From Streptosporangiaceae bacterium (GTDB lineage: Bacteria > Actinomycetota > Actinomycetes > Streptosporangiales > Streptosporangiaceae), in contig DATFVJ010000265.1 of NCBI GenBank assembly GCA_035260365.1, positions 1 through 37,640 on the forward strand: 37,640 nucleotides of DNA, given 5' to 3'. The notes under the pieces were generated by a model that was given only the letters and a program-made list of their open reading frames with translations, was not told the DNA's origin and made no database searches. Every line of letters begins with the position of its first letter. The first letter of the stretch is position 1. The position numbers and the translations under genes are program-made. Positions 21,088 through 30,776 of this stretch are shown piece after piece.

Positions 21088-22959
21088 TCATCTCGTGACG
21101 GGCAGGACGATCGCGGACGGGTGCGCCGGGTCGTGGAAGACCTCCTGGTCGGCGGCCACCATGCTGGCGGCGCCGAGCGGCTGCCCGGTTCCGGTGTTCC
21201 TGTCGACCCGCGGGTACGCGCCGCTCGCGACCTGGATCCTGACCCGGTGACCGGGCAGGAACCGGTGCCCGGCCGGCCACAGTTCCACCGGCACGCGCCG
21301 CACGCCGTCGCCGCCGGCTTCGGGGCTTCCCGGCACCAGGCGGCGCACGCCCTCGCAGACGTTGATCGACGCCCCGGTCGGCCCGACGTCGCAGACCCGG
21401 ACGACGACGTCGGTGTGCGCGCGGCTGGAGCGGACGTACAGGTCGGCGGTGACCGGCCCGATGATCTCCAGGCCGTCCGGCAGCACCTGGCTGGTGAAGG
21501 TCAGCACGTCCCTGCGCGCCTCGAGCCTGCGGTTGTCCTCGGGCTCGGAGTTGCCGACCAGGGTGGGCCCGCTGACCGCCGGCGTGGGATGCGCGGGGTC
21601 GTAGCGGTAGGAGTCAGGCGGCGACCCCGCCGGCGGCGCGGCGGCCAGGCCACGGCCGGGCTGCAGGTGCCAGCGCTGCGGTGAGATGCCTGGCACGGGC
21701 CAGTCCGGGTAGTCGCGCCACTCGCCGGCACCGGTGACGAACAGCCTGACCGGCTGCCTGCGCAGCAGCGACTGCTCGCCGAGCAGGTGGGCGCGGAACC
21801 AGGTGAGCGCGTCGGCGCTCGCCGCGCGAAGCTGCCGCGGGTCGGCGTGGTACCACGGCCCGATCGTCAGCTGCGGCGTGCGGCCCGCGGCGCGCAGTTG
21901 TGCGTAGTCCCGTAGCTGCCAGGGCAGGAACACGTCGTACCAGCCGCCGAGCAGGCTGACGGGTACGCCGACCTCGCCGACGCTGCCGCTGTGGTCGCGG
22001 CGCTGCCAGTAGGGCTCGTTCGTCCCGGCGTTGCGCAGCAGGTCCTGGAAGAACGGTACGGGCGCACCAGCGGACAGCGTGTCGAGCTCGGCGAGCGGCC
22101 GCCCGGACATGGCCGCGCGCCTGGCCCGGCGGATGGACGTGATACCAGCGGTCAGGCCCCCGAGCGGCCGCTCGATGCGGGTGGTCAGGTCGCTCCAGGT
22201 GAGCGTGGACTCCAGCGCGAAGGCGCCGCCGACGTAGGCGGCGTCGCGGAACTGCGACGCGGCCATCTGCGCGGCCATCGCCCGCAGCTCGGGCCCGGCG
22301 TCGGCGGCGATCGCCCATTGGGAGTAGCCGAGATAGCTGGGGCCGTACATGGCGAACACGCCGCCGAACCACGGCTGCGCCTTCAGCCACGCGACGGTGG
22401 TGAGCCCGTCCTCCCGCTCGTTGCCGAGTGGGTCGAACACGCCGCCGGACCCGAACGTGCCGCGCACGCTCTGGACGACGGCCTGGAAGCCGTGCCGGGC
22501 GAAGAAATGCCCGTAGACCAGGCCGACGAAGCCGCTGCGCCCGTACGGAGACCGAACCAGGATCACCGGGGGATGGCCGGCGCCGTGGTCCGCGGTGCCC
22601 GCGCGGTCCGCCGCGTCGGCGGGGAAGTACCTGTCGGCGCGCAGCGTCACGCCGTCCGCCATCACCACGGCGAGGTTGCGCTGCACGGCGACCGGATGCG
22701 GCCCGGGCGGCAGCCGCAGCGCGGCGGCGCCCAGGTTGCGCGCGGCGGTCGCGGCGCGGCCGCGGGCGGCGACCACGCTGATGCCCGCGGCGCGGTGCCT
22801 GGCCGTGACCACCGCACCGTCGCTCGCCACGACGGTGCTGCCGCCGAGATGCCGGCGCTCACCCCTGGGCCGCACGGCGGTATGGACCGTGGCCTGCATG
22901 GTCGCCCGGGCCACCGCGGCCATCCTCTTGGCCAGCTGCTCGCCAGGAGTCCGCACCAT
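21088..22959 (-). CDS. CocE/NonD-family hydrolase (S15 X-Pro dipeptidyl-peptidase-like)
   Basis: Recognised blocks are VVMADGVTLRADRYFP...PVILVRSPYGR...VVQSVRGTFGSGG...EREDGLTTVAWLKAQPW...AMYGPSYLGYSQW (the GxSYxG nucleophile). A C-terminal beta-sandwich region (LYVRSSRAHTDVVVRVCDV...HRVRIQVASGAYP) follows. The first 90 aa or so look like an extension, so the true start may be internal. Confidence 0.85.
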   Translation of the reverse strand: MVRTPGEQLAKRMAAVARATMQATVHTAVRPRGERRHLGGSTVVASDGAVVTARHRAAGISVVAARGRAATAARNLGAAALRLPPGPHPVAVQRNLAVVMADGVTLRADRYFPADAADRAGTADHGAGHPPVILVRSPYGRSGFVGLVYGHFFARHGFQAVVQSVRGTFGSGGVFDPLGNEREDGLTTVAWLKAQPWFGGVFAMYGPSYLGYSQWAIAADAGPELRAMAAQMAASQFRDAAYVGGAFALESTLTWSDLTTRIERPLGGLTAGITSIRRARRAAMSGRPLAELDTLSAGAPVPFFQDLLRNAGTNEPYWQRRDHSGSVGEVGVPVSLLGGWYDVFLPWQLRDYAQLRAAGRTPQLTIGPWYHADPRQLRAASADALTWFRAHLLGEQSLLRRQPVRLFVTGAGEWRDYPDWPVPGISPQRWHLQPGRGLAAAPPAGSPPDSYRYDPAHPTPAVSGPTLVGNSEPEDNRRLEARRDVLTFTSQVLPDGLEIIGPVTADLYVRSSRAHTDVVVRVCDVGPTGASINVCEGVRRLVPGSPEAGGDGVRRVPVELWPAGHRFLPGHRVRIQVASGAYPRVDRNTGTGQPLGAASMVAADQEVFHDPAHPSAIVLPVTR

Positions 22960-23032
22960 CGTCCCCCATCCGCTTACTTACCGGTTAGTACCATAGTGAC
23001 TCATGGGTGCGGGCAAGGGAAGGCGCGGGGGC

Positions 23033-23542
23033 TCAGGTCGCCGACCCGGCCGCGGCGCCGGTCACCAGGTCGCCCCAGCGGGCCAGCGCCGCGTCCAGGT
23101 CGAGCGGGGCGATCATGCTGCCCTTGCTCAGCTCCTCCGGCCAGTCCTCGGCCGGGACCCGCCACATCACCTCGAACTCGATTCCGTCCGGGTCCTTCGC
23201 GTACAGCGACTTCGACACCCGGTGGTCGCTGCCGCCCACGAGCGCGCCGTGGGCGGCGAGCTTGGCGCGGGTCTCGGCCAGCTCGGGCAGTGACCCGACC
23301 TCCCAGGCCAGGTGGTACAGGCCGGGCCGCGGCATGCCGCCCGGGTCGGACGGCTGCGCGGCATTCCCCACCTGGAACAGCCCGAGGTCGTGGTCGTTGG
23401 AGGTACCGGCGGCACGCAGGAAGGCGGCGCGCCCGGCGATCTCGGTCGCGATCTCGAACCCGAGTGTCTCCTGATAGAACTTTACCGATCGTGACACGTT
23501 GCTGACGTAGAGCACGGCATGATTCAGGCGGCGAACCGACAT
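23033..23542 (-). CDS. VOC-family (glyoxalase/bleomycin-resistance/dioxygenase) protein
   Basis: MSVRRLNHAVLYVSNVSRSVKFYQETLGFEI...HLAWEV...SLYAKDPDGIEFEV is the typical paired beta-alpha-beta-beta-beta VOC pattern. I trimmed the 473-aa track ORF to ATG 23542, which is preceded by GAGGAG. Confidence 0.88.
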   Translation of the reverse strand: MSVRRLNHAVLYVSNVSRSVKFYQETLGFEIATEIAGRAAFLRAAGTSNDHDLGLFQVGNAAQPSDPGGMPRPGLYHLAWEVGSLPELAETRAKLAAHGALVGGSDHRVSKSLYAKDPDGIEFEVMWRVPAEDWPEELSKGSMIAPLDLDAALARWGDLVTGAAAGSAT

Positions 23543-23619
23543 GGCGCCATCTCCTCGCGGGTTTCTTCGGCTAACGACCAGAATGCCGTCGGGGCCGCCG
23601 GCGATTCCCGCCGAGCCGC

Positions 23620-24369
23620 TCAGCCGCCTGGCCGCAGCGCTGAGATCTCCTGCCACAGCTCCCGGTAGCACTGCGCCGCCCTGCTGCGCGGCGCGTACAC
23701 GGGCAGCGGCGCCCGGCGGACCGCCATCTGCTCGACGAGCGAAAGCGCGGGCACGACGGCGGTGGCAAGGTCCTTGCGCTCGGCCGGCAGGTTCTGCGTG
23801 ATGTCGCGGTGCAGCCGCTTGCGCCTGTCGACCATGGAGAAGAACGCCAGGATGGCCGGCTGCGGGCCGTCGAACGAGTCGACGAACCCGGTGAGCTGGT
23901 CGAGTGTGCGGGTGCACAGTGTGGTCGGGATCAGCGGCACGATCAGCATGTCGGCGGCGTGCAGCACGTTCTCGGTAACCAGCGAGATGCTCGGCGGGCA
24001 GTCGAGGAAGACCGTGTCGTACTCCCCGGCCAGCGGCGCGAGCAGCCGCGCGATCTGCCTGGTGGGCTTCTTCGCCGCGTCGAGGAGCAGGTCCATCCGG
24101 CGGTAGGTGAGGTCCGCGGGCAGCAGGTCGAGGTGGTCGAAGTCGGTGCCCTTGATGGCCGCGTCGAGCGGCATCGCGCCGCGCACGAGCGCCTTGCCTC
24201 CGCCCTTCACCCGCGGGCGGATCCGGAACAGGAACGTGGCCGCGGCCTGCGGATCCAGGTCCCAAAGCAGGGTGCTGCGGCCCTCGCGGCTGGCCAGGTA
24301 GGCGAGGTTGACCGCCGCTGACGTCTTGCCGACGCCGCCCTTGACGTTGTACGTGGCATAGATCCTCAC
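23620..24369 (-). CDS. Orphan ParA/MinD-family P-loop ATPase, 249 aa
   Basis: It carries the deviant Walker A YNVKGGVGKTSAAVNLA, the Walker A' LLWDLDPQ and the Walker B VFLDCPPS. It has no N-terminal HTH extension and there is no parB nearby. The GTG start overlaps the CYTH-CHAD stop as GTGA (24366-24369). Confidence 0.9.
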   Translation of the reverse strand: MRIYATYNVKGGVGKTSAAVNLAYLASREGRSTLLWDLDPQAAATFLFRIRPRVKGGGKALVRGAMPLDAAIKGTDFDHLDLLPADLTYRRMDLLLDAAKKPTRQIARLLAPLAGEYDTVFLDCPPSISLVTENVLHAADMLIVPLIPTTLCTRTLDQLTGFVDSFDGPQPAILAFFSMVDRRKRLHRDITQNLPAERKDLATAVVPALSLVEQMAVRRAPLPVYAPRSRAAQCYRELWQEISALRPGG

Positions 24370-26003
24370 GCGGCCGCCGCCTTGGCCAGGCTGGCGATCC
24401 GGCTGGCGTTGCGATCGCTCGTGAACCGGGCGAAACGCCGGCCGAAGTCGTCACGGGCCTCGCTGGCCGCCGCGTCGAGCTGCGCCGCCAGCTCGCCCAT
24501 GGCCAGGAGCGTGGCGGCCGGCGTGGCGCGTTCGGCGACCATCCGTGCGGCGAGCGACCTGATGGCCTCGCGTTGGACGTGCCCGTCCTGGATCTCTCCC
24601 AGGCAGTCCTGTAGTGCTTTCAGCTCCCGAACGGCGCTGCGGTGTGTCGCTGGTTCGTGCAGTGCGGCGAAGAACTCGAGCAGGTAACGCAGTTCCTTGC
24701 CGCGTTTGCGCACCGTGTGCAGGTCCTCTTCGGGCGACGCCGCCGTGATGGCCGCGCCGGTCCTCGCGAGCCTGCGGTACGCGCGCTCGATCCGCGCCGT
24801 GGCGAGGTCGCCGACGGGTGTTTGCGCCACCCCGCCCCGGCCGGCCGCGGCGCGGCGGGACGGCGCCGCGCCGGCCTGGTGCGCGCCGCGCGCACTGAGT
24901 TTGCCGAGCGCGGCGCGCCACTGGCTGGTGAGGCGCGTGAAGCGGGCCGAGCGCAGCCCGCGGGCCAGGCGGCGCCGCTCGGCGGCGCGGTAGCGGGTGA
25001 GGCTCTCGTGCATCGGCGCGAGGTCAGGCGGCGATGCCGTGACCAGACCGGCGGCGGCGTCGGCGAAGCCGAGCAGATGCACGTCCAGGTCGCGCAGTGG
25101 TGTCGTCAGCTGCCCGAGCCACCTGAACTCGAGTGCGTACCGCGGCGCCAGGTCGCCCGGCAGCGCGTCACCGGCCAGCTTCAGCGCGGCCCGGGTCCTG
25201 CGTACCGCGATCCGCAGATCGTGCAGGAACTCGGTGTCGATGTCGCGGACGGCGCCGTCGACGTTGGCTTCGATGATGTCGAGCAGCCGGAGCAGTACCG
25301 CGGCGACCGCGGCGCGTGCGGGCATGGCCGGTGTCAGTGCGACGTCCACCTGACTGCTGTAGTCGCCCGCCCGCCGGCCGGCGGCGGCCAGCGCAAGCTG
25401 GAAGGACGACCGGTCGGCCGCGGTCACGCTGGGCAGGCCGGCGAGGAGCCGCTCGACGCGGTCGGCCTGGCCGCCGTAGCCGCGCACCGGCGTGACCGTC
25501 AGGCGCGCGGGCAGCGCGATACCGGCCGGTCCGCGCACCGAGGCGAGGTCGACCGTGATGCGGGCCACCGTCTTGTCCTCGCCGTCGAGGACGCGCAGGG
25601 TCCGCTGTGCGCTCGCGCACGCGGCGACGGGCAGCAGCGCGCGGATCCCCGCGACCGGCTCGACGAGGTCGCGGACCAGCGCGCCGGGAACCGAGCCTGC
25701 CGCGGCTGGCCAGCTCATCCTCGGCACCGCGCACGCTGTGCGCTCGCCGTCGCTCGCGGCAAAGGCGAGTTCGTGCGTGCCGGGACCGCTGGTGTATTCG
25801 AGCGTGCTGCCCGCACGGTAAAGGCGCCAGTCGAACGTGTCCAGCCACACCCGCCGCACGCTACGAGCACCGTCCGTAGCGACCTCGAACCTCGGCCGCA
25901 GCGCGGCCGCCATCTCGCGCCCGGCCGCCGCGTCCGCGGCTTCGATCGTGAACTCGTGAAGCTGCTGGGGCAACGCCCGCCTCCCCAGTCGATGTCGTGT
26001 CAC
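24366..26003 (-). CDS. CYTH + CHAD domain protein, 545 aa
   Basis: The N-terminal roughly 200 aa are CYTH-like (EFTIEA...VRRVWLDTFDWRLYRAGSTLEY...LTVTPVRGY). The C-terminal CHAD domain has its hallmark His/Arg helices (FLHDLRIAVRRTRAALKLAG and LHTVRKRGKELRYLLEFF). The canonical CYTH ExExK appears as EFTIE with no Lys, so the domain may be degenerate. Confidence 0.85.
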   Translation of the reverse strand: MTRHRLGRRALPQQLHEFTIEAADAAAGREMAAALRPRFEVATDGARSVRRVWLDTFDWRLYRAGSTLEYTSGPGTHELAFAASDGERTACAVPRMSWPAAAGSVPGALVRDLVEPVAGIRALLPVAACASAQRTLRVLDGEDKTVARITVDLASVRGPAGIALPARLTVTPVRGYGGQADRVERLLAGLPSVTAADRSSFQLALAAAGRRAGDYSSQVDVALTPAMPARAAVAAVLLRLLDIIEANVDGAVRDIDTEFLHDLRIAVRRTRAALKLAGDALPGDLAPRYALEFRWLGQLTTPLRDLDVHLLGFADAAAGLVTASPPDLAPMHESLTRYRAAERRRLARGLRSARFTRLTSQWRAALGKLSARGAHQAGAAPSRRAAAGRGGVAQTPVGDLATARIERAYRRLARTGAAITAASPEEDLHTVRKRGKELRYLLEFFAALHEPATHRSAVRELKALQDCLGEIQDGHVQREAIRSLAARMVAERATPAATLLAMGELAAQLDAAASEARDDFGRRFARFTSDRNASRIASLAKAAAA

Positions 26004-26007
26004 TTAT

Positions 26008-26032
26008 GCCGATGTTCGGAAGCCGATGTTCG
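26008..26032. repeat. Direct repeat GCCGATGTTCG x2 (14-bp period) abutting the CYTH-CHAD start codon
   Basis: The copies lie at 26008-26018 and 26022-26032. They begin 5 nt upstream of the GTG at 26003 on the transcribed (minus) strand. Confidence 0.8.
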
Positions 26033-26062
26033 CAGCCCGCTGGGCGTCACCGGATACGACGC

Positions 26063-26068
26063 ACTATA
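26063..26068 (-). promoter_or_regulatory. Candidate -10 element (TATAGT on the minus strand) for the CYTH-CHAD/ParA/VOC operon
   Basis: The plus strand reads actata at 26063-26068 in a locally AT-rich intergenic region. I saw no convincing -35 element. Confidence 0.35.
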
Positions 26069-26140
26069 GCCATCTCCGGTTAACTTGTTGTTCGTCGAAC
26101 CGTGTCCCTTTAGTTATACGCGAGGCCGAGTGCCGTAACT

Positions 26141-27367
26141 CTACGCCACGCTTTCCGTGCCCGAACCGGCCCGCACCGGCACGGGGCCGGCGAGCCGCCG
26201 CCGCCGGGTCAGCGGCAGCGCGAACACCACCCCGGCGGCCATGACCGCGAAGGCGGCGGCGGGCTCGTTGATCAGTCCCTGCACGATGAGCGAGACGATC
26301 AGGCCGCCGGCGTTGCCTGCCAGCCACAACAGGGCGGCCGCCGTGGCCCCCGCGTCCCCGGCCCGGCGCTCGGCGATCTCGAGGACGACCGGCAGCGCGG
26401 TCAGCAGCATGGCGCCGATGCAGAACATCGCGACCGCGCCGACGGCCACCCCTGGCGCCACGGCGAGCGCGACACAGCCGGCCGCGGTCACGATCACCAC
26501 GAGCCGCAGGAGCGGCGCCTCGGCGCCCCGCGCCGCGACCCAGGGCGCGAGCAGCGCGGAGCCGACCACGCCGGCCAGCACCATCTCGACGAGCAGCACG
26601 CCAGCGGCCGACGACGACACCCCGGCCGGCTTGAGCAGTGCCTGGAGCCAGGTGGACATCGCGACGAAAACGCCGAACCCGGCCAGCACGAGGCCGGTCA
26701 GCGTGCGCATCACCGGGTCCGACCAGACGATCCGGAGCCGCTGCGCCCCGGCCGCGACGAGCACCACGCCCTCTCGCCTGCCCGGGTGCCGCACCGCGAC
26801 GAGCAGCGCGATGGCCCCGGCCGACGCGTAGGCGGCGCCGATGACAAGCAGCAGGCCGATCTGGCTGCCGTGACTGAGCACCGAGCCGAGCACGAGCGCG
26901 AGCACGAAGCCGCCGAAGATGCTCGCCGAGCCGATGGCGATCCCCGTCGGGCGGTGCCTGGGTTCGAGGTACTGCCCGGCCAGTTTGGTCAGTGCGTTAA
27001 GTACCAGCGGCTGGGCGATCGCGATGATCAACTGCCCGGCGAGCACCCGGTCGTAACCGCCGCCGATGCGCAGCAATGCCCCGGCCGCCGTGAGCACCCC
27101 GCCGATGGCGAGCCAGCCGCGGAACCAGCGGTCGAGCAGCGCCCCCGCGGGCAGCGCCAGGACGACGTAGACGAGGGGGAAGACCTCGGCCGTCCAGCCC
27201 ATCGCGCTCACCGAGACGCCGTAATGACTCGCCGCCACGGTCGTGATCGGCGCGAACGTCAGCCACAGCATCTGGTTGGCGGAGGAGACGAGGCAGTAGG
27301 CGGCCACGACCGTCCACCTGTTCGGCGCTGGCCCTGCGGCCGCCACCTGCCCTCCTGCGGGGCTCAT
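26141..27367 (-). CDS. MFS transporter
   Basis: The 408-aa protein has about 12 hydrophobic helices, and loop 2-3 (LPAGALLDRWFRG) resembles the MFS signature. Confidence 0.85.
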   Translation of the reverse strand: MSPAGGQVAAAGPAPNRWTVVAAYCLVSSANQMLWLTFAPITTVAASHYGVSVSAMGWTAEVFPLVYVVLALPAGALLDRWFRGWLAIGGVLTAAGALLRIGGGYDRVLAGQLIIAIAQPLVLNALTKLAGQYLEPRHRPTGIAIGSASIFGGFVLALVLGSVLSHGSQIGLLLVIGAAYASAGAIALLVAVRHPGRREGVVLVAAGAQRLRIVWSDPVMRTLTGLVLAGFGVFVAMSTWLQALLKPAGVSSSAAGVLLVEMVLAGVVGSALLAPWVAARGAEAPLLRLVVIVTAAGCVALAVAPGVAVGAVAMFCIGAMLLTALPVVLEIAERRAGDAGATAAALLWLAGNAGGLIVSLIVQGLINEPAAAFAVMAAGVVFALPLTRRRRLAGPVPVRAGSGTESVA

Positions 27368-27619
27368 GTACGTTTCACCAACCTCACGGGTCGCAGATCG
27401 TCACCTGGCATGGTGCTCGTAACCGAGCGCGCTGCTCATTGCCGGGCACGCCGCTCGTTACGGGACATGCTGGATCATGAGCGCTTCGACCACCAGAGGC
27501 CCGCGGACAAGATTGCGGGCGGGTATCGGCTGAAGTCGCTGCGTCTGGTCTGACAATTCCAGCCCGGGTACCCAGGCAAGATGCTGAAACGGGTCGCCCG
27601 GGCCGGGCATGCTGAGCCC

Positions 27620-28453
27620 ATGAAGATCCTTATCTCCGCGGACATGGAGGGCGCCACCGGGGTCACCTGGCCCGCCGACGTCGAGCCAGGGACCGAGCAG
27701 TGGCAGCGCTGCCGCCGGATGTTCACGTCCGACGTCAACGCGGCGATCGCCGGGTTCTTCGACGCGGGAGCCACCGACGTCGTGGTCAACGAGGCGCACG
27801 CGACAATGCGTAACCTGCTTCTCGAGGAGCTCGACGGGCGGGCTGCCATGCTGACCGGCCGCCACAAGGACCTGGGCATGGTGGAGGGCATCCAGCATCC
27901 CGAGGTGAGCGGCGTCGCTTTCGTCGGCTACCACGCGGCGGCGGGAGCCGACGGCGTGCTCGCGCACACGTACCTGCCGAACTCGATCGTCGGCGTGCGG
28001 GTCAACGGCGCCCGGGCGAGCGAGGGACGGCTCAACGCCCTGGTCGCCGCCGAGTACGGAGTACCTGTCGTCCTTGTCACCGGCGACGATCGCGCGTGCG
28101 CGGACGCGGCGGGCTACGCTCCGGACGCGCGGACGGTCGCGGTCAAGGAGTGCGTCAGCAGGTACTCGGCCATCTGCGCGGCACCGTCGGTGACGGCCGC
28201 GGCCATCAGGTCCGCGGCCGCCGGCGCGGGCAAGCTCGCGGCCAGGCGGGCACCGGTCACCGACGGGCGCTTCCACGTGGAGGTAGAGGTCGACGCCACC
28301 CAACTCGCCCAGGCGGCGGCGATCGTGCCGACCGTCGAGCGACTCGGTGATCGGACGGTCGGATACGACAGCCCGACCGCGCGCGAGATGATCCGCTGCT
28401 TCAAGGCGGTCGCCACGTTGATCTCCGCGGCCACCGAGGCCCGTTATGGCTGA
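27620..28453 (+). CDS. M55-family metallopeptidase (D-aminopeptidase DppA-like)
   Basis: MKILISADMEGATGVTWPADV...VVVNEAHATMRNL...FVGYHAAAG...HTY is the characteristic M55 N-terminus. I start at ATG 27620. The track start 27581 adds 13 aa. Confidence 0.85.
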   Translation: MKILISADMEGATGVTWPADVEPGTEQWQRCRRMFTSDVNAAIAGFFDAGATDVVVNEAHATMRNLLLEELDGRAAMLTGRHKDLGMVEGIQHPEVSGVAFVGYHAAAGADGVLAHTYLPNSIVGVRVNGARASEGRLNALVAAEYGVPVVLVTGDDRACADAAGYAPDARTVAVKECVSRYSAICAAPSVTAAAIRSAAAGAGKLAARRAPVTDGRFHVEVEVDATQLAQAAAIVPTVERLGDRTVGYDSPTAREMIRCFKAVATLISAATEARYG

Positions 28454-28547: not shown

Positions 28548-30776
28548 ATGAGCGAACAGGAAAAGCCGGGCGTGCCGTTGGCCGCGCCCGTGCCCGTGCC
28601 TGTCGCGGTGCGGCGGGCCCCGCAAGCGGCGGTCCCCACGGCGCCGGTCGAGCCGCGTTTCCGCACCGCGCACGGGACGGTGACCGCGGAGCCGTTCGGC
28701 TGGATGACCGACCGAAGCGACCTGCGGCTGCACACGTACCTGACGGCAGAAAGGGAGCACTACCAGGCGGCCGTGAGCGGGCTGGCCGGGCTGCGCAGCC
28801 TCCTCGGCGCGGAGTTCGCCGCGCGCCTGCCGACAGAAGAGGCCGCGGTGCCCTGGCGCTGCGGGCCTTATACCTATGTCGAGCAGACGCGGGCTGGGTC
28901 AGAGTTCCCGCAGTTGGGCCGGCGCCGCAACGGCAGCGACGCCGGCTTCGAGGTGGTTCTCGACGGCGGGACGGCCGCGGCTGCCCCGGCCACCCAGGCG
29001 GGCGCGGGCAGTTACTTCCGTTTCGGCGTATGTGAGCCGAGCCCGGACGGACGGCTGATCGCCTACTCGGTGGACTTCACCGGAGACGAGGTCTACGAGC
29101 TGCGCTTCCGCGACGCGGCCAGCGGCCGCGACCGGCCCGATCGCATCGCCCGCAGCTATTACGGATGTGCGTGGAGCGCCGACTCGAGCGCCTTCTTCTA
29201 CGTCGTGCACGACACATCGTTCCGGCCCTGCCGGGTGATGCGGCACGTGATCGGCATGCCGCAGGCCGCCGACAAGATCGTTTTCGCCGAGCCGGACGCG
29301 CGCTACCACGTCACGGTCGGCGCGACCCGCAGCGGCGACTGGATCGTGATCTCCGCCGACGCGCGTGACACGAACGAGCAGTGGATCGTCCCTGCCGCCA
29401 GGCACGATGCCGCGCCCCGGCTGGTCGAGCGCCGCCGCCGCGGCGTCGAGTACTTCACCGAGCATCTGGGCGGGCCAGCGGCGGGCGGGGCGGGACCGGG
29501 CCGGTTCGCGATCCTGACCAACGACGGCGCGCCCGAGTACCGGGTGGTGACGGCGCCGGTCGAGGCCCCCGGCCGCGGCAACTGGCGTGAGCTCGTGCCT
29601 GGCCACCCGGACATCAGGTTCCACAGGCTGGACGTGATCGGCGGCTACCTCGTGCTTTCCTGCCGCTCCCGCGGTGATCCCTTCCTGCGGATCGTGCGTC
29701 CGGACGGCAGCCACCATGACCAGCATCCGGAAACACCCGCCGGGTTCATCGAGGCGGCGGTGCGGGGCAGCTACGACGCGGCGGACGTGGTCGTGTCCAC
29801 GCAGTCCCTCGTCGCGCCCAAGTGGTGGTGGTCAGTCGACCTGCACACGGGCAAGCGGACGCCGCTGCGGGCGACCCGGGCACCCGGCTACGACGAGGCC
29901 GCCTACGTGACGCGGCGGCTCTGGGCGCCCGCGCCCGACGGCGAGCACGTCCCCGTCACGATCGCTTACCGGCGCGGCCTGCGGCCAGACGGCAGCGCAC
30001 CGTGCCTGCTCTACGGTTATGGCGCCTACGAGTCGTGCGCGGACCCGCGGTTCTCCGCCACCCTCCCGAGCCTGCTCGACCGCGGCTACGTGTACGCGAT
30101 CGGGCACGTACGCGGCGGCGGCGAGCTTGGCCGCCACTGGTGGCAGGACGGCCGCCTCGCCGCCAAGCGCAACACGTTCACCGACTTCGTCGCGGTCCGC
30201 GATCACCTGGTGCGGGCGGGCTGGGCCGCTCCTGGCCGCGTGGCGTGCCGTGGGCTGTCCGCGGGCGGGCTCACCGTTGCCGTGGCCTATACGTTCTGGC
30301 CGGACCGCTGGGCCGGTGTGATCGCCGAGGCCCCCGCCGTGGACCTGCTCAACCAGATGCTCGATCCGGCGGTACCGCTCACCGTCAACGAGTACGACGA
30401 ATGGGGCGACCCGGCCGACGAACCGCAGTTCCGCTTGATGCGCTCGTACACGCCGGCCGAGAACGTGACCGACGTGCCGCGCCCGCCGCTGCTCGCCACG
30501 GGGATCCTGCACGACCCACGGGTCATGATCTCCGAGCCCGCGAAGTGGGTGGCGGCGCTGCGCGCCGCCGACACCTGCGGCAACCGCATCCTGTTGCGCG
30601 CGGAACTCGGCCCGTCCGCGCACCGTGGGCCGGCCGGCCGTTCGGCCTCGCTCGCGTACGAGGCCGAGCTGCTGGCCTGGGTCATCTCGCTCACCGGGCG
30701 GCCGGCCCCAAGGCTCCGGGGTGACCCCAGTGGCCGGGGTGGCCCAGTGATCGGGGTGATCCAGTGGCCGGGATGA
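28548..30776 (+). CDS. S9A prolyl-oligopeptidase-family serine peptidase (oligopeptidase B-like)
   Basis: An N-terminal beta-propeller region (HGTVTAEPFGWMTDRSD...) is followed by the catalytic domain. The catalytic residues appear in CRGLSAGGLTV (nucleophile Ser), GILHDPRV (Asp) and GPSAHRGPAG (His). The last 25 aa or so are encoded by the tandem repeat at 30721 onward. Confidence 0.88.
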   Translation: MSEQEKPGVPLAAPVPVPVAVRRAPQAAVPTAPVEPRFRTAHGTVTAEPFGWMTDRSDLRLHTYLTAEREHYQAAVSGLAGLRSLLGAEFAARLPTEEAAVPWRCGPYTYVEQTRAGSEFPQLGRRRNGSDAGFEVVLDGGTAAAAPATQAGAGSYFRFGVCEPSPDGRLIAYSVDFTGDEVYELRFRDAASGRDRPDRIARSYYGCAWSADSSAFFYVVHDTSFRPCRVMRHVIGMPQAADKIVFAEPDARYHVTVGATRSGDWIVISADARDTNEQWIVPAARHDAAPRLVERRRRGVEYFTEHLGGPAAGGAGPGRFAILTNDGAPEYRVVTAPVEAPGRGNWRELVPGHPDIRFHRLDVIGGYLVLSCRSRGDPFLRIVRPDGSHHDQHPETPAGFIEAAVRGSYDAADVVVSTQSLVAPKWWWSVDLHTGKRTPLRATRAPGYDEAAYVTRRLWAPAPDGEHVPVTIAYRRGLRPDGSAPCLLYGYGAYESCADPRFSATLPSLLDRGYVYAIGHVRGGGELGRHWWQDGRLAAKRNTFTDFVAVRDHLVRAGWAAPGRVACRGLSAGGLTVAVAYTFWPDRWAGVIAEAPAVDLLNQMLDPAVPLTVNEYDEWGDPADEPQFRLMRSYTPAENVTDVPRPPLLATGILHDPRVMISEPAKWVAALRAADTCGNRILLRAELGPSAHRGPAGRSASLAYEAELLAWVISLTGRPAPRLRGDPSGRGGPVIGVIQWPG

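Follow-up and report, generated by a model that had tools for sequence, protein, structure and literature searches.

The spacing of carboxysomes by McdA and McdB is among the closest described parallels to the gene pair reported here: a small ParA-type ATPase without a helix-turn-helix (HTH) extension is encoded next to a dedicated partner other than ParB, and what is moved is, or in the pair would be, an inclusion of the cytoplasm instead of DNA. Chromosomal ParA/Soj proteins (PDB codes 8RAY and 1WCV) share the fold class of the ATPase, and the phosins or CYTH-CHAD proteins (YgiF of Escherichia coli, 5A60; the Chlorobium tepidum protein, 6QV7/6QVA; PptA of Streptomyces, 6RN5) share an architecture in which a TTM/CYTH fold is followed by a CHAD helical bundle. 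The pair lies on the minus strand of contig DATFVJ010000265.1 (positions 1 to 37,640, hereafter the window) of a Streptosporangiaceae bacterium (assembly GCA_035260365.1), and encodes a CHAD protein followed by a ParA-like ATPase. It is very likely a conserved two-gene unit that acts on polyphosphate (polyP), and it represents a recurring CHAD-ParA module that is undescribed in the literature.

Literature searches for a ParA system acting on polyP granules found none described. A 2024 review of the ParA/MinD family names no polyP cargo (PMC11407121), and a 2026 cyanobacterial study (PMC13081873) describes no ParA system, and states that for E. coli, Caulobacter and Synechococcus the mechanism of granule positioning is undefined and that no ParA system takes part. 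The only protein so far tied to even spacing of polyP granules is the histone H1-like AlgP of P. aeruginosa (PMC9239181). Unlike the pair, AlgP is a passive Lys-rich protein associated with DNA and granules, belongs to no ATPase system and has no sequence relation to either gene product. In Acidithiobacillus, folD, ppk, parA and a CHAD gene are highly conserved together, which is given as gene context only; the ParA is read as a plasmid-partition protein and no function is proposed (PMC10892726, 2024). The likeness to the pair, with parA beside a CHAD gene and ppk1, is taken from the description in that paper.

The chances are about even that the pair is a positioning or partition system analogous to McdAB, in which the CHAD protein would serve as granule adaptor and ParA would space the granules along the nucleoid; the mechanism expected of it is a diffusion ratchet on the nucleoid. 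The differences from McdA/McdB are that the partner is a CYTH-like/CHAD protein unrelated to McdB, and that the cargo would be a granule of inorganic polymer. Furthermore, the ParA of the pair retains the classical signature lysine, which, as far as is known, McdA of S. elongatus lacks. The pair is a concrete, genetically testable candidate for how bacteria space and inherit polyP granules. If the reading is true, the phosin CHAD proteins, to which no function has been assigned so far, would gain one, and the dead CYTH domain would act as a pseudoenzyme.

The gene pair and its conservation

The longest open reading frame (ORF) of the CHAD gene spans positions 24366-26003 (545 amino acids) and the ParA-like ORF spans 23620-24369, both on the minus strand. 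The plus strand reads tcac at 24366-24369, that is, GTGA on the coding strand, so the overlap of the CHAD stop and the ParA start that the first-pass annotation had described is present, indicating translational coupling of the two genes. The features of the pair are as follows.

24366..25973, minus strand: gene for the degenerate-CYTH/CHAD protein, 535 amino acids from the probable TTG start (ORF, Pfam, AlphaFold2 model, Shine-Dalgarno sequence and orthologue starts)
23620..24369, minus strand: gene for the ParA-like ATPase, 249 amino acids (ORF, Pfam, NCBIfam, trees, charge)
24366..24369, minus strand: GTGA, stop codon TGA of the CHAD gene and start codon GTG of the ParA-like gene in a 4-bp overlap (sequence)
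25971..25986, minus strand: Shine-Dalgarno sequence GGGGAGG, 6-nt spacer and probable TTG start (sequence, orthologue starts)

The overlapping CHAD-ParA gene pair was found in more than 100 other genomes. In the first three ParA homologues, chosen by identity, each CHAD gene ends 4 bp inside the ParA start, and the flanks are wholly different. From the same class, 401 evenly sampled genomes were searched with the ParA at E≤1e-35, and the coordinates of the matches were compared with those of a CHAD search of the same genomes. A ParA match is present in 45 of them. Of the 33 matches with at least 51% identity, 31 have a CHAD gene immediately before them in the same orientation, the two exceptions being a genome without CHAD and a match at a contig end. 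By contrast, none of the 12 matches at 44-50% identity (families f33, f40 and f55) has an adjacent CHAD gene, and these uncoupled actinobacterial relatives have no conserved neighbour.

A species-level scan, with one genome per species and restricted to the best 80 of more than 598 matching stretches, comprises 77 loci with CHAD adjacent upstream on the same strand, one with an in-frame CHAD-ParA ORF and two at contig ends. CHAD thus accompanies ParA in 78/78 assessable loci. The same 4-bp overlap recurs in 60 of the 77 adjacent species-level loci and in 26 of the 27 fetched class-sample loci with an adjacent CHAD gene. The pairing is far beyond chance, and the adjacency beyond this strain, on which the first-pass annotation had made its proposal depend, is kept in both samples. 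ORF clustering of 110 loci revealed that the CHAD and ParA genes alone are shared. The next neighbour cluster reaches at most 31 of the 110 and seems to reflect synteny within a lineage, or ORFs on the antisense strand; no conserved third gene was found.

Cultured carriers of the pair include Prauserella muralis DSM 45305, Fodinicola feengrottensis and two Antrihabitans species, and further carriers are metagenome-assembled genomes (MAGs) labelled Sedimenticola, Trichloromonas, Dormiibacterota and Acidimicrobiales. Candidate fusions were set aside. The in-frame CHAD-ParA ORF (locus L076) belongs to a MAG of the MFD series and is suspected to be a long-read indel error, and the long ParA ORFs of L117 and L085 are read-through or frameshift junk. 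In genomes of family f16, a second, weaker CHAD-like match follows the ParA gene in the same orientation at a distance of about 1.5-2.3 kb (G384:C151:29379-30023, G226:C6:974558-975160, G210:C43:10942-11430 and G289:C25:83004-83525), and in G016 a divergent CHAD gene lies about 1.4 kb upstream of the pair.

The first-pass annotation had extended the CHAD gene to 26003. The ORF does reach that position, but the protein probably starts at TTG 25973, 30 nt inside GTG 26003, which gives 535 instead of 545 amino acids. This start is preferred because GGGGAGG lies 6 nt before it, and because the length of the database protein P0121 (535 amino acids, 99% identical) and the orthologue starts agree with it; most CHAD orthologues begin at the equivalent L/MPQQLREF in the alignment. 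With this start, the basic N-terminal peptide MTRHRLGRRA is probably untranslated, and it has no conservation among the CHAD orthologues. The ParA-activating role that had been suggested for such a peptide was therefore rejected. A direct repeat, GCCGATGTTCG, occurs twice at 26008-26032 of the window, about 35-60 nt upstream of TTG 25973 and upstream of the Shine-Dalgarno sequence, and may act in transcription, as an operator or as part of a promoter, and not in translation. Its period of 14 nt does not fit a PHO-box array, in which the spacing is 11 nt.

Domains of the two proteins

The CHAD protein consists of two parts (545-residue numbering).

24372..25319, minus strand: CHAD helical domain, residues ~229-544, presumed to bind polyP (Pfam, PDB match, Foldseek, invariant columns)
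25383..25958, minus strand: domain of CYTH/TTM fold with lost catalytic motifs, residues ~16-207, with an invariant WLDTFDWRL (Foldseek, motif comparison)

The CHAD domain is unambiguous in Pfam (PF05235, residues 236-481, E 8e-49, 167 bits against a cut-off of 25.6), and a PDB sequence search matched the protein to the CHAD protein of C. tepidum (6QV7/3E0S, E 5e-31). An AlphaFold2 model was computed with 35 orthologues in the input (mean predicted local distance difference test score, 87). Foldseek matched its C-terminal half to 6QVA, the complex of C. tepidum CHAD with polyP, with a template-modelling (TM) score of 0.88. The basic surface of His, Arg and Lys residues is conserved, with H261, R264, R268, R269, R271, R304, H429, R432, K433, K436 and R439 invariant in the orthologue alignment. 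By analogy with its homologues, the protein is presumed to bind polyP and to localise to granules (PMC6537752; Tumlirsch and Jendrossek 2017, as cited elsewhere).

The CYTH-CHAD architecture assigned by the first-pass annotation stands in Pfam for the CHAD half only. Residues 1-234 have no Pfam CYTH match (PF01928), even at E≤1, and the CYTH/TTM fold of the N-terminal half is visible only in the AlphaFold model, where it is an eight-stranded tunnel fold. For this half, Foldseek found the TTM enzymes 7NSF, 2GFG and 3BHD (TM 0.5-0.7 of the target), and also reached 5A65 and full-length YgiF, 5A60 (E 1e-4 to 1e-10 for the TTM matches). The host encodes a second CHAD protein, on contig C182, which is a canonical CYTH-CHAD paralogue (Pfam CYTH, E 4.6e-10) and is not followed by a ParA gene. 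Comparison of the two proteins agrees with the earlier claim of a degenerate ExExK signature and extends the loss to the other catalytic motifs:

ExExK motif: EFTIE in the CHAD partner, EIERK in the paralogue
tunnel arginines: LEYT in the CHAD partner, LRQR in the paralogue
C-terminal acidic motif: TVTPV (LTVTPV) in the CHAD partner, EIEFE in the paralogue

All 35 orthologues show this degeneration of the CYTH motifs, as do six proteobacterial ParA-coupled CHAD partners, and an invariant (W/Y)LD(T/S)FDWRL is shared with the degenerate CYTH domain of the latter. By sequence, these traits define a ParA-specific CHAD subfamily with a pseudo-CYTH domain. It differs from the phosins in that its CYTH domain has no ExExK motif or tunnel arginines and falls below Pfam detection, and in that a ParA gene always follows it.

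The ParA-like ATPase is matched in Pfam by AAA_31, CbiA and BcsQ, and carries the following elements.

24322..24342, minus strand: deviant Walker A motif KGGVGKT, residues 10-16, with signature lysine K10 (invariant in the alignment)
24193..24225, minus strand: family-specific basic loop R49-I-R-P-R-V-K-G-G-G-K59 (RxRPRVKGGGK; alignment of ParA orthologues)
23809..23829, minus strand: basic cluster D181-R-R-K-R-L-H187 (invariant columns)

As had been noted from the first reading of the sequence, the protein has the KGGVGKT Walker A and no N-terminal HTH extension. In an alignment of 19 ParA orthologues, N-V-K10-G-G-V-G-K15-T16 is invariant, as are Walker A' LLWDLDPQ (D37, D39) and Walker B VFLDCPPS (D123), which align with 8RAY and 1WCV, and residues R49, R53, V54, K55, G56 and G57 of the basic loop. 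M. xanthus ParA and T. thermophilus Soj vary in the region of loop 49-59. In the basic cluster, R183 corresponds, in the alignments to 8RAY and 1WCV, to the conserved arginine of the 'D-x-R' segment of Soj/ParA, which we take to be the DNA-binding arginine (R189 in B. subtilis Soj). The nearest PDB sequence match is 8RAY (E 9e-24), identified as M. xanthus ParA from a paper, and the other nearest structures are a ParA-like protein of M. smegmatis and Soj of T. thermophilus (1WCV). The PDB sequence matches at E≤1e-8 include no structure of McdA.

Such matches, with a full-length identity of about 30% to chromosomal ParA/Soj, raise the possibility of an ordinary ParA that partitions DNA (a plasmid, an island or the chromosome) next to a CHAD gene that is either an unrelated neighbour or encodes an atypical centromere-binding partner. 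The best NCBIfam match is likewise the ParA_partition ATPase model, but at 75 bits against a cut-off of 180, and all the ParA, MinD and BcsQ equivalogs score far below their cut-offs. No parB was found near the pair, as the first-pass annotation had stated. The genome's only ParB_N match lies elsewhere, next to a different ParA on contig C401. The host also carries genes for the polyP kinases PPK1 and PPK2 (two PPK2 genes), and two other ParA-like genes, of which one forms this separate parAB locus; the ParA of the pair is thus a third, separate ParA in a polyP-competent organism. Moreover, the genes on either side are of ordinary chromosomal kinds and change from lineage to lineage, the partner has a polyP-binding fold and no DNA-binding domain, and a branch of about three changes per site sets the ParA family apart from canonical ParAs. 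The missing adjacent ParB partner and the invariant RPRVKGGGK loop set the ATPase apart from the ParAs of ParABS systems. A role in DNA partition is very improbable.

The ATPase of the pair is also strongly basic where ParABS ATPases are acidic. The net charge of the family is about +6, against -9 and -11 for the two other ParA-like proteins of the host (30-32% identical to it). This charge, the invariant family-specific loop that is missing from Soj and ParA, and the fact that every conserved partner is polyP-related would suit a ParA that forms its patterns on polyP instead of DNA, with RPRVKGGGK and DRRKRLH binding polyP and ATP cycling organising the granule coat or bridging granules. Against this stand the arginine kept at the DNA-binding position of Soj, the ability of a basic surface to bind DNA equally well, and the fact that no ParA/MinD member is known with an inorganic polymer as its matrix. 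We consider this reading unlikely. More speculative, and similarly doubtful, is the proposal that the pair would be the first ParA/MinD system with an inorganic polymer inclusion as cargo, at its boldest with polyP as the ATP-dependent matrix and the dead tunnel domain as the activator of the ATPase.

Polyphosphate links in relatives and the proposed mechanism

Some more distant ParA relatives are associated with polyP enzymes. Relatives with 38-61% identity occur in 78 of 401 sampled Pseudomonadota genomes (about 20%). In five Pseudomonadota genomes the gene immediately before the ParA relative encodes a two-domain PPK2 (two stretches of Pfam PPK2, E 1e-141). At L131, L133, L134, L160-L163 and L169, where the ParA relatives have 48-52% identity, a two-domain PPK2 of about 495 amino acids stops at the ParA start or only a few bases from it, in the place of CHAD. 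An exhaustive search of 1.84 billion representatives yielded 459 ParA clusters at E≤1e-30, many of them with proteins of about 500-560 amino acids. Five of the ten long representatives tested carry a C-terminal Pfam CYTH domain. The ExExK motif is intact (EIEFK or ELEFK) in the three ParA-CYTH fusions that were read, and one fusion is encoded directly behind a CHAD gene of 524 amino acids. Together with the Acidithiobacillus cluster, known here by description only, the upstream PPK2 genes and the ParA-CYTH fusions are sequence-based, independent links to polyP by which the assignment is supported. In one of the ten long proteins, P0309 (561 amino acids, 44% identity), a sucrose-6F-phosphate phosphohydrolase domain (S6PP/HAD) takes the place of CYTH.

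These enzyme partners bear on a further explanation, in which ParA would be an ATP-dependent switch for granule nucleation, size, fusion or turnover, or for the recruitment or regulation of polyP enzymes (PPK2, TTM/CYTH), with the CHAD protein as anchor. Two-domain PPK2 and CYTH domains with intact ExExK are not typical cargo adaptors, and a TTM-like domain is kept in the CHAD partner, as a switch would suggest. However, the catalytic residues of the partner's CYTH domain are lost across phyla, so that the core pair has no enzyme to regulate, and the characterised small ParA/MinD proteins with the same motif set are all spatial organisers (PMC11407121). A switch is therefore possible but rather unlikely.

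In a maximum-likelihood tree of 123 ParAs, the CHAD-coupled members form one supported group (99/90). Its lone nested member without CHAD, L028 (G259:C3), has a long branch of 1.24, a LacI-family gene upstream and no CHAD found in its 73%-complete genome. Such a long branch would fit a relaxation or change of constraint once the partner was lost. A wider, outgroup-rooted tree spreads the CHAD-coupled members across the base of the whole ParA family. The uncoupled actinobacterial relatives (f33, f40 and f55) are basal in the first tree and lie inside the CHAD-coupled set in the wider one, and this nesting suggests losses. We read the coupling to CHAD as the ancestral state; later, CHAD would have been lost or exchanged for another partner several times. 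The deep nodes are weakly supported.

The rooted tree also resolves the PPK2-coupled set and a large clade with a divergent upstream RnfH gene, which is found at 15 of the 30 fetched loci. In the relatives L140, L142, L143, L155, L177 and L178 (41-44% identity), this gene matches Ub-RnfH (Pfam, E 1e-31). The RnfH-type ubiquitin-fold protein carries a long tail of Lys/Ala-rich repeats, DDKAAKIAAIKAKAAAAKKAK, which recalls tails of the histone H1-like or AlgP type.

As a positioning system, the pair would work in four steps. The CHAD domain would bind the granule surface, as suggested by the established polyP binding of CHAD domains. The ATP-bound sandwich dimer of ParA would bind a polyanionic matrix through its basic surface; nucleoid DNA is the most likely matrix because of the arginine at the DNA-binding position of Soj and the extra basic clusters. 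The CHAD protein may then contact ParA and stimulate ATP hydrolysis, through either its dead CYTH-like domain or its conserved C-terminal helix; we infer a contact through the CYTH-like domain from the natural ParA-CYTH fusions. Finally, local depletion of ParA would move and space the granules, as McdB and McdA do for carboxysomes.

Several observations weigh against such a system. The module is patchy: a ParA match occurs in only 45 of the 401 class genomes, and none of the 20 listed genomes of the same family carries it. The patchy occurrence implies that it is dispensable for polyP granules in general. Some members of the ParA family are orphans or lie beside unrelated genes, and a metabolic or regulatory role, instead of positioning, would likewise be compatible with the links to PPK2 and to active CYTH. 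In the alignment of CHAD orthologues, no basic peptide resembling that of ParB or McdB is conserved at the N terminus. In other bacteria, CHAD deletion left granule formation without visible disruption, according to work quoted in PMC13081873.

Host genome and flanking genes

The host genome is a soil MAG of 3.25 Mb that is 73% complete, and in public sequencing runs the region is present only in soil metagenome DNA. A promoter and terminator scan of 22900-26200 gave no signal above chance. The genes around the pair are the following.

23033..23542, minus strand: Glyoxalase/VOC gene, 169 amino acids, 77 bp downstream of the ParA-like gene (Pfam Glyoxalase, E 1e-15)
21088-22959 of the window: S15 X-Pro dipeptidyl-peptidase gene
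26141-27367 of the window: MFS transporter gene
27581-28453 of the window: M55 D-aminopeptidase gene
28548-30776 of the window: S9 prolyl oligopeptidase gene

The VOC gene had been proposed to follow the pair at 77 bp and to belong to the same operon. The distance is correct, but a tblastn search of 126 loci found the gene in the window and its nearest relative, L001, only, which rules it out as a member of the module. The S9, M55 and S15 peptidase genes are likewise syntenic in L001 and not elsewhere.

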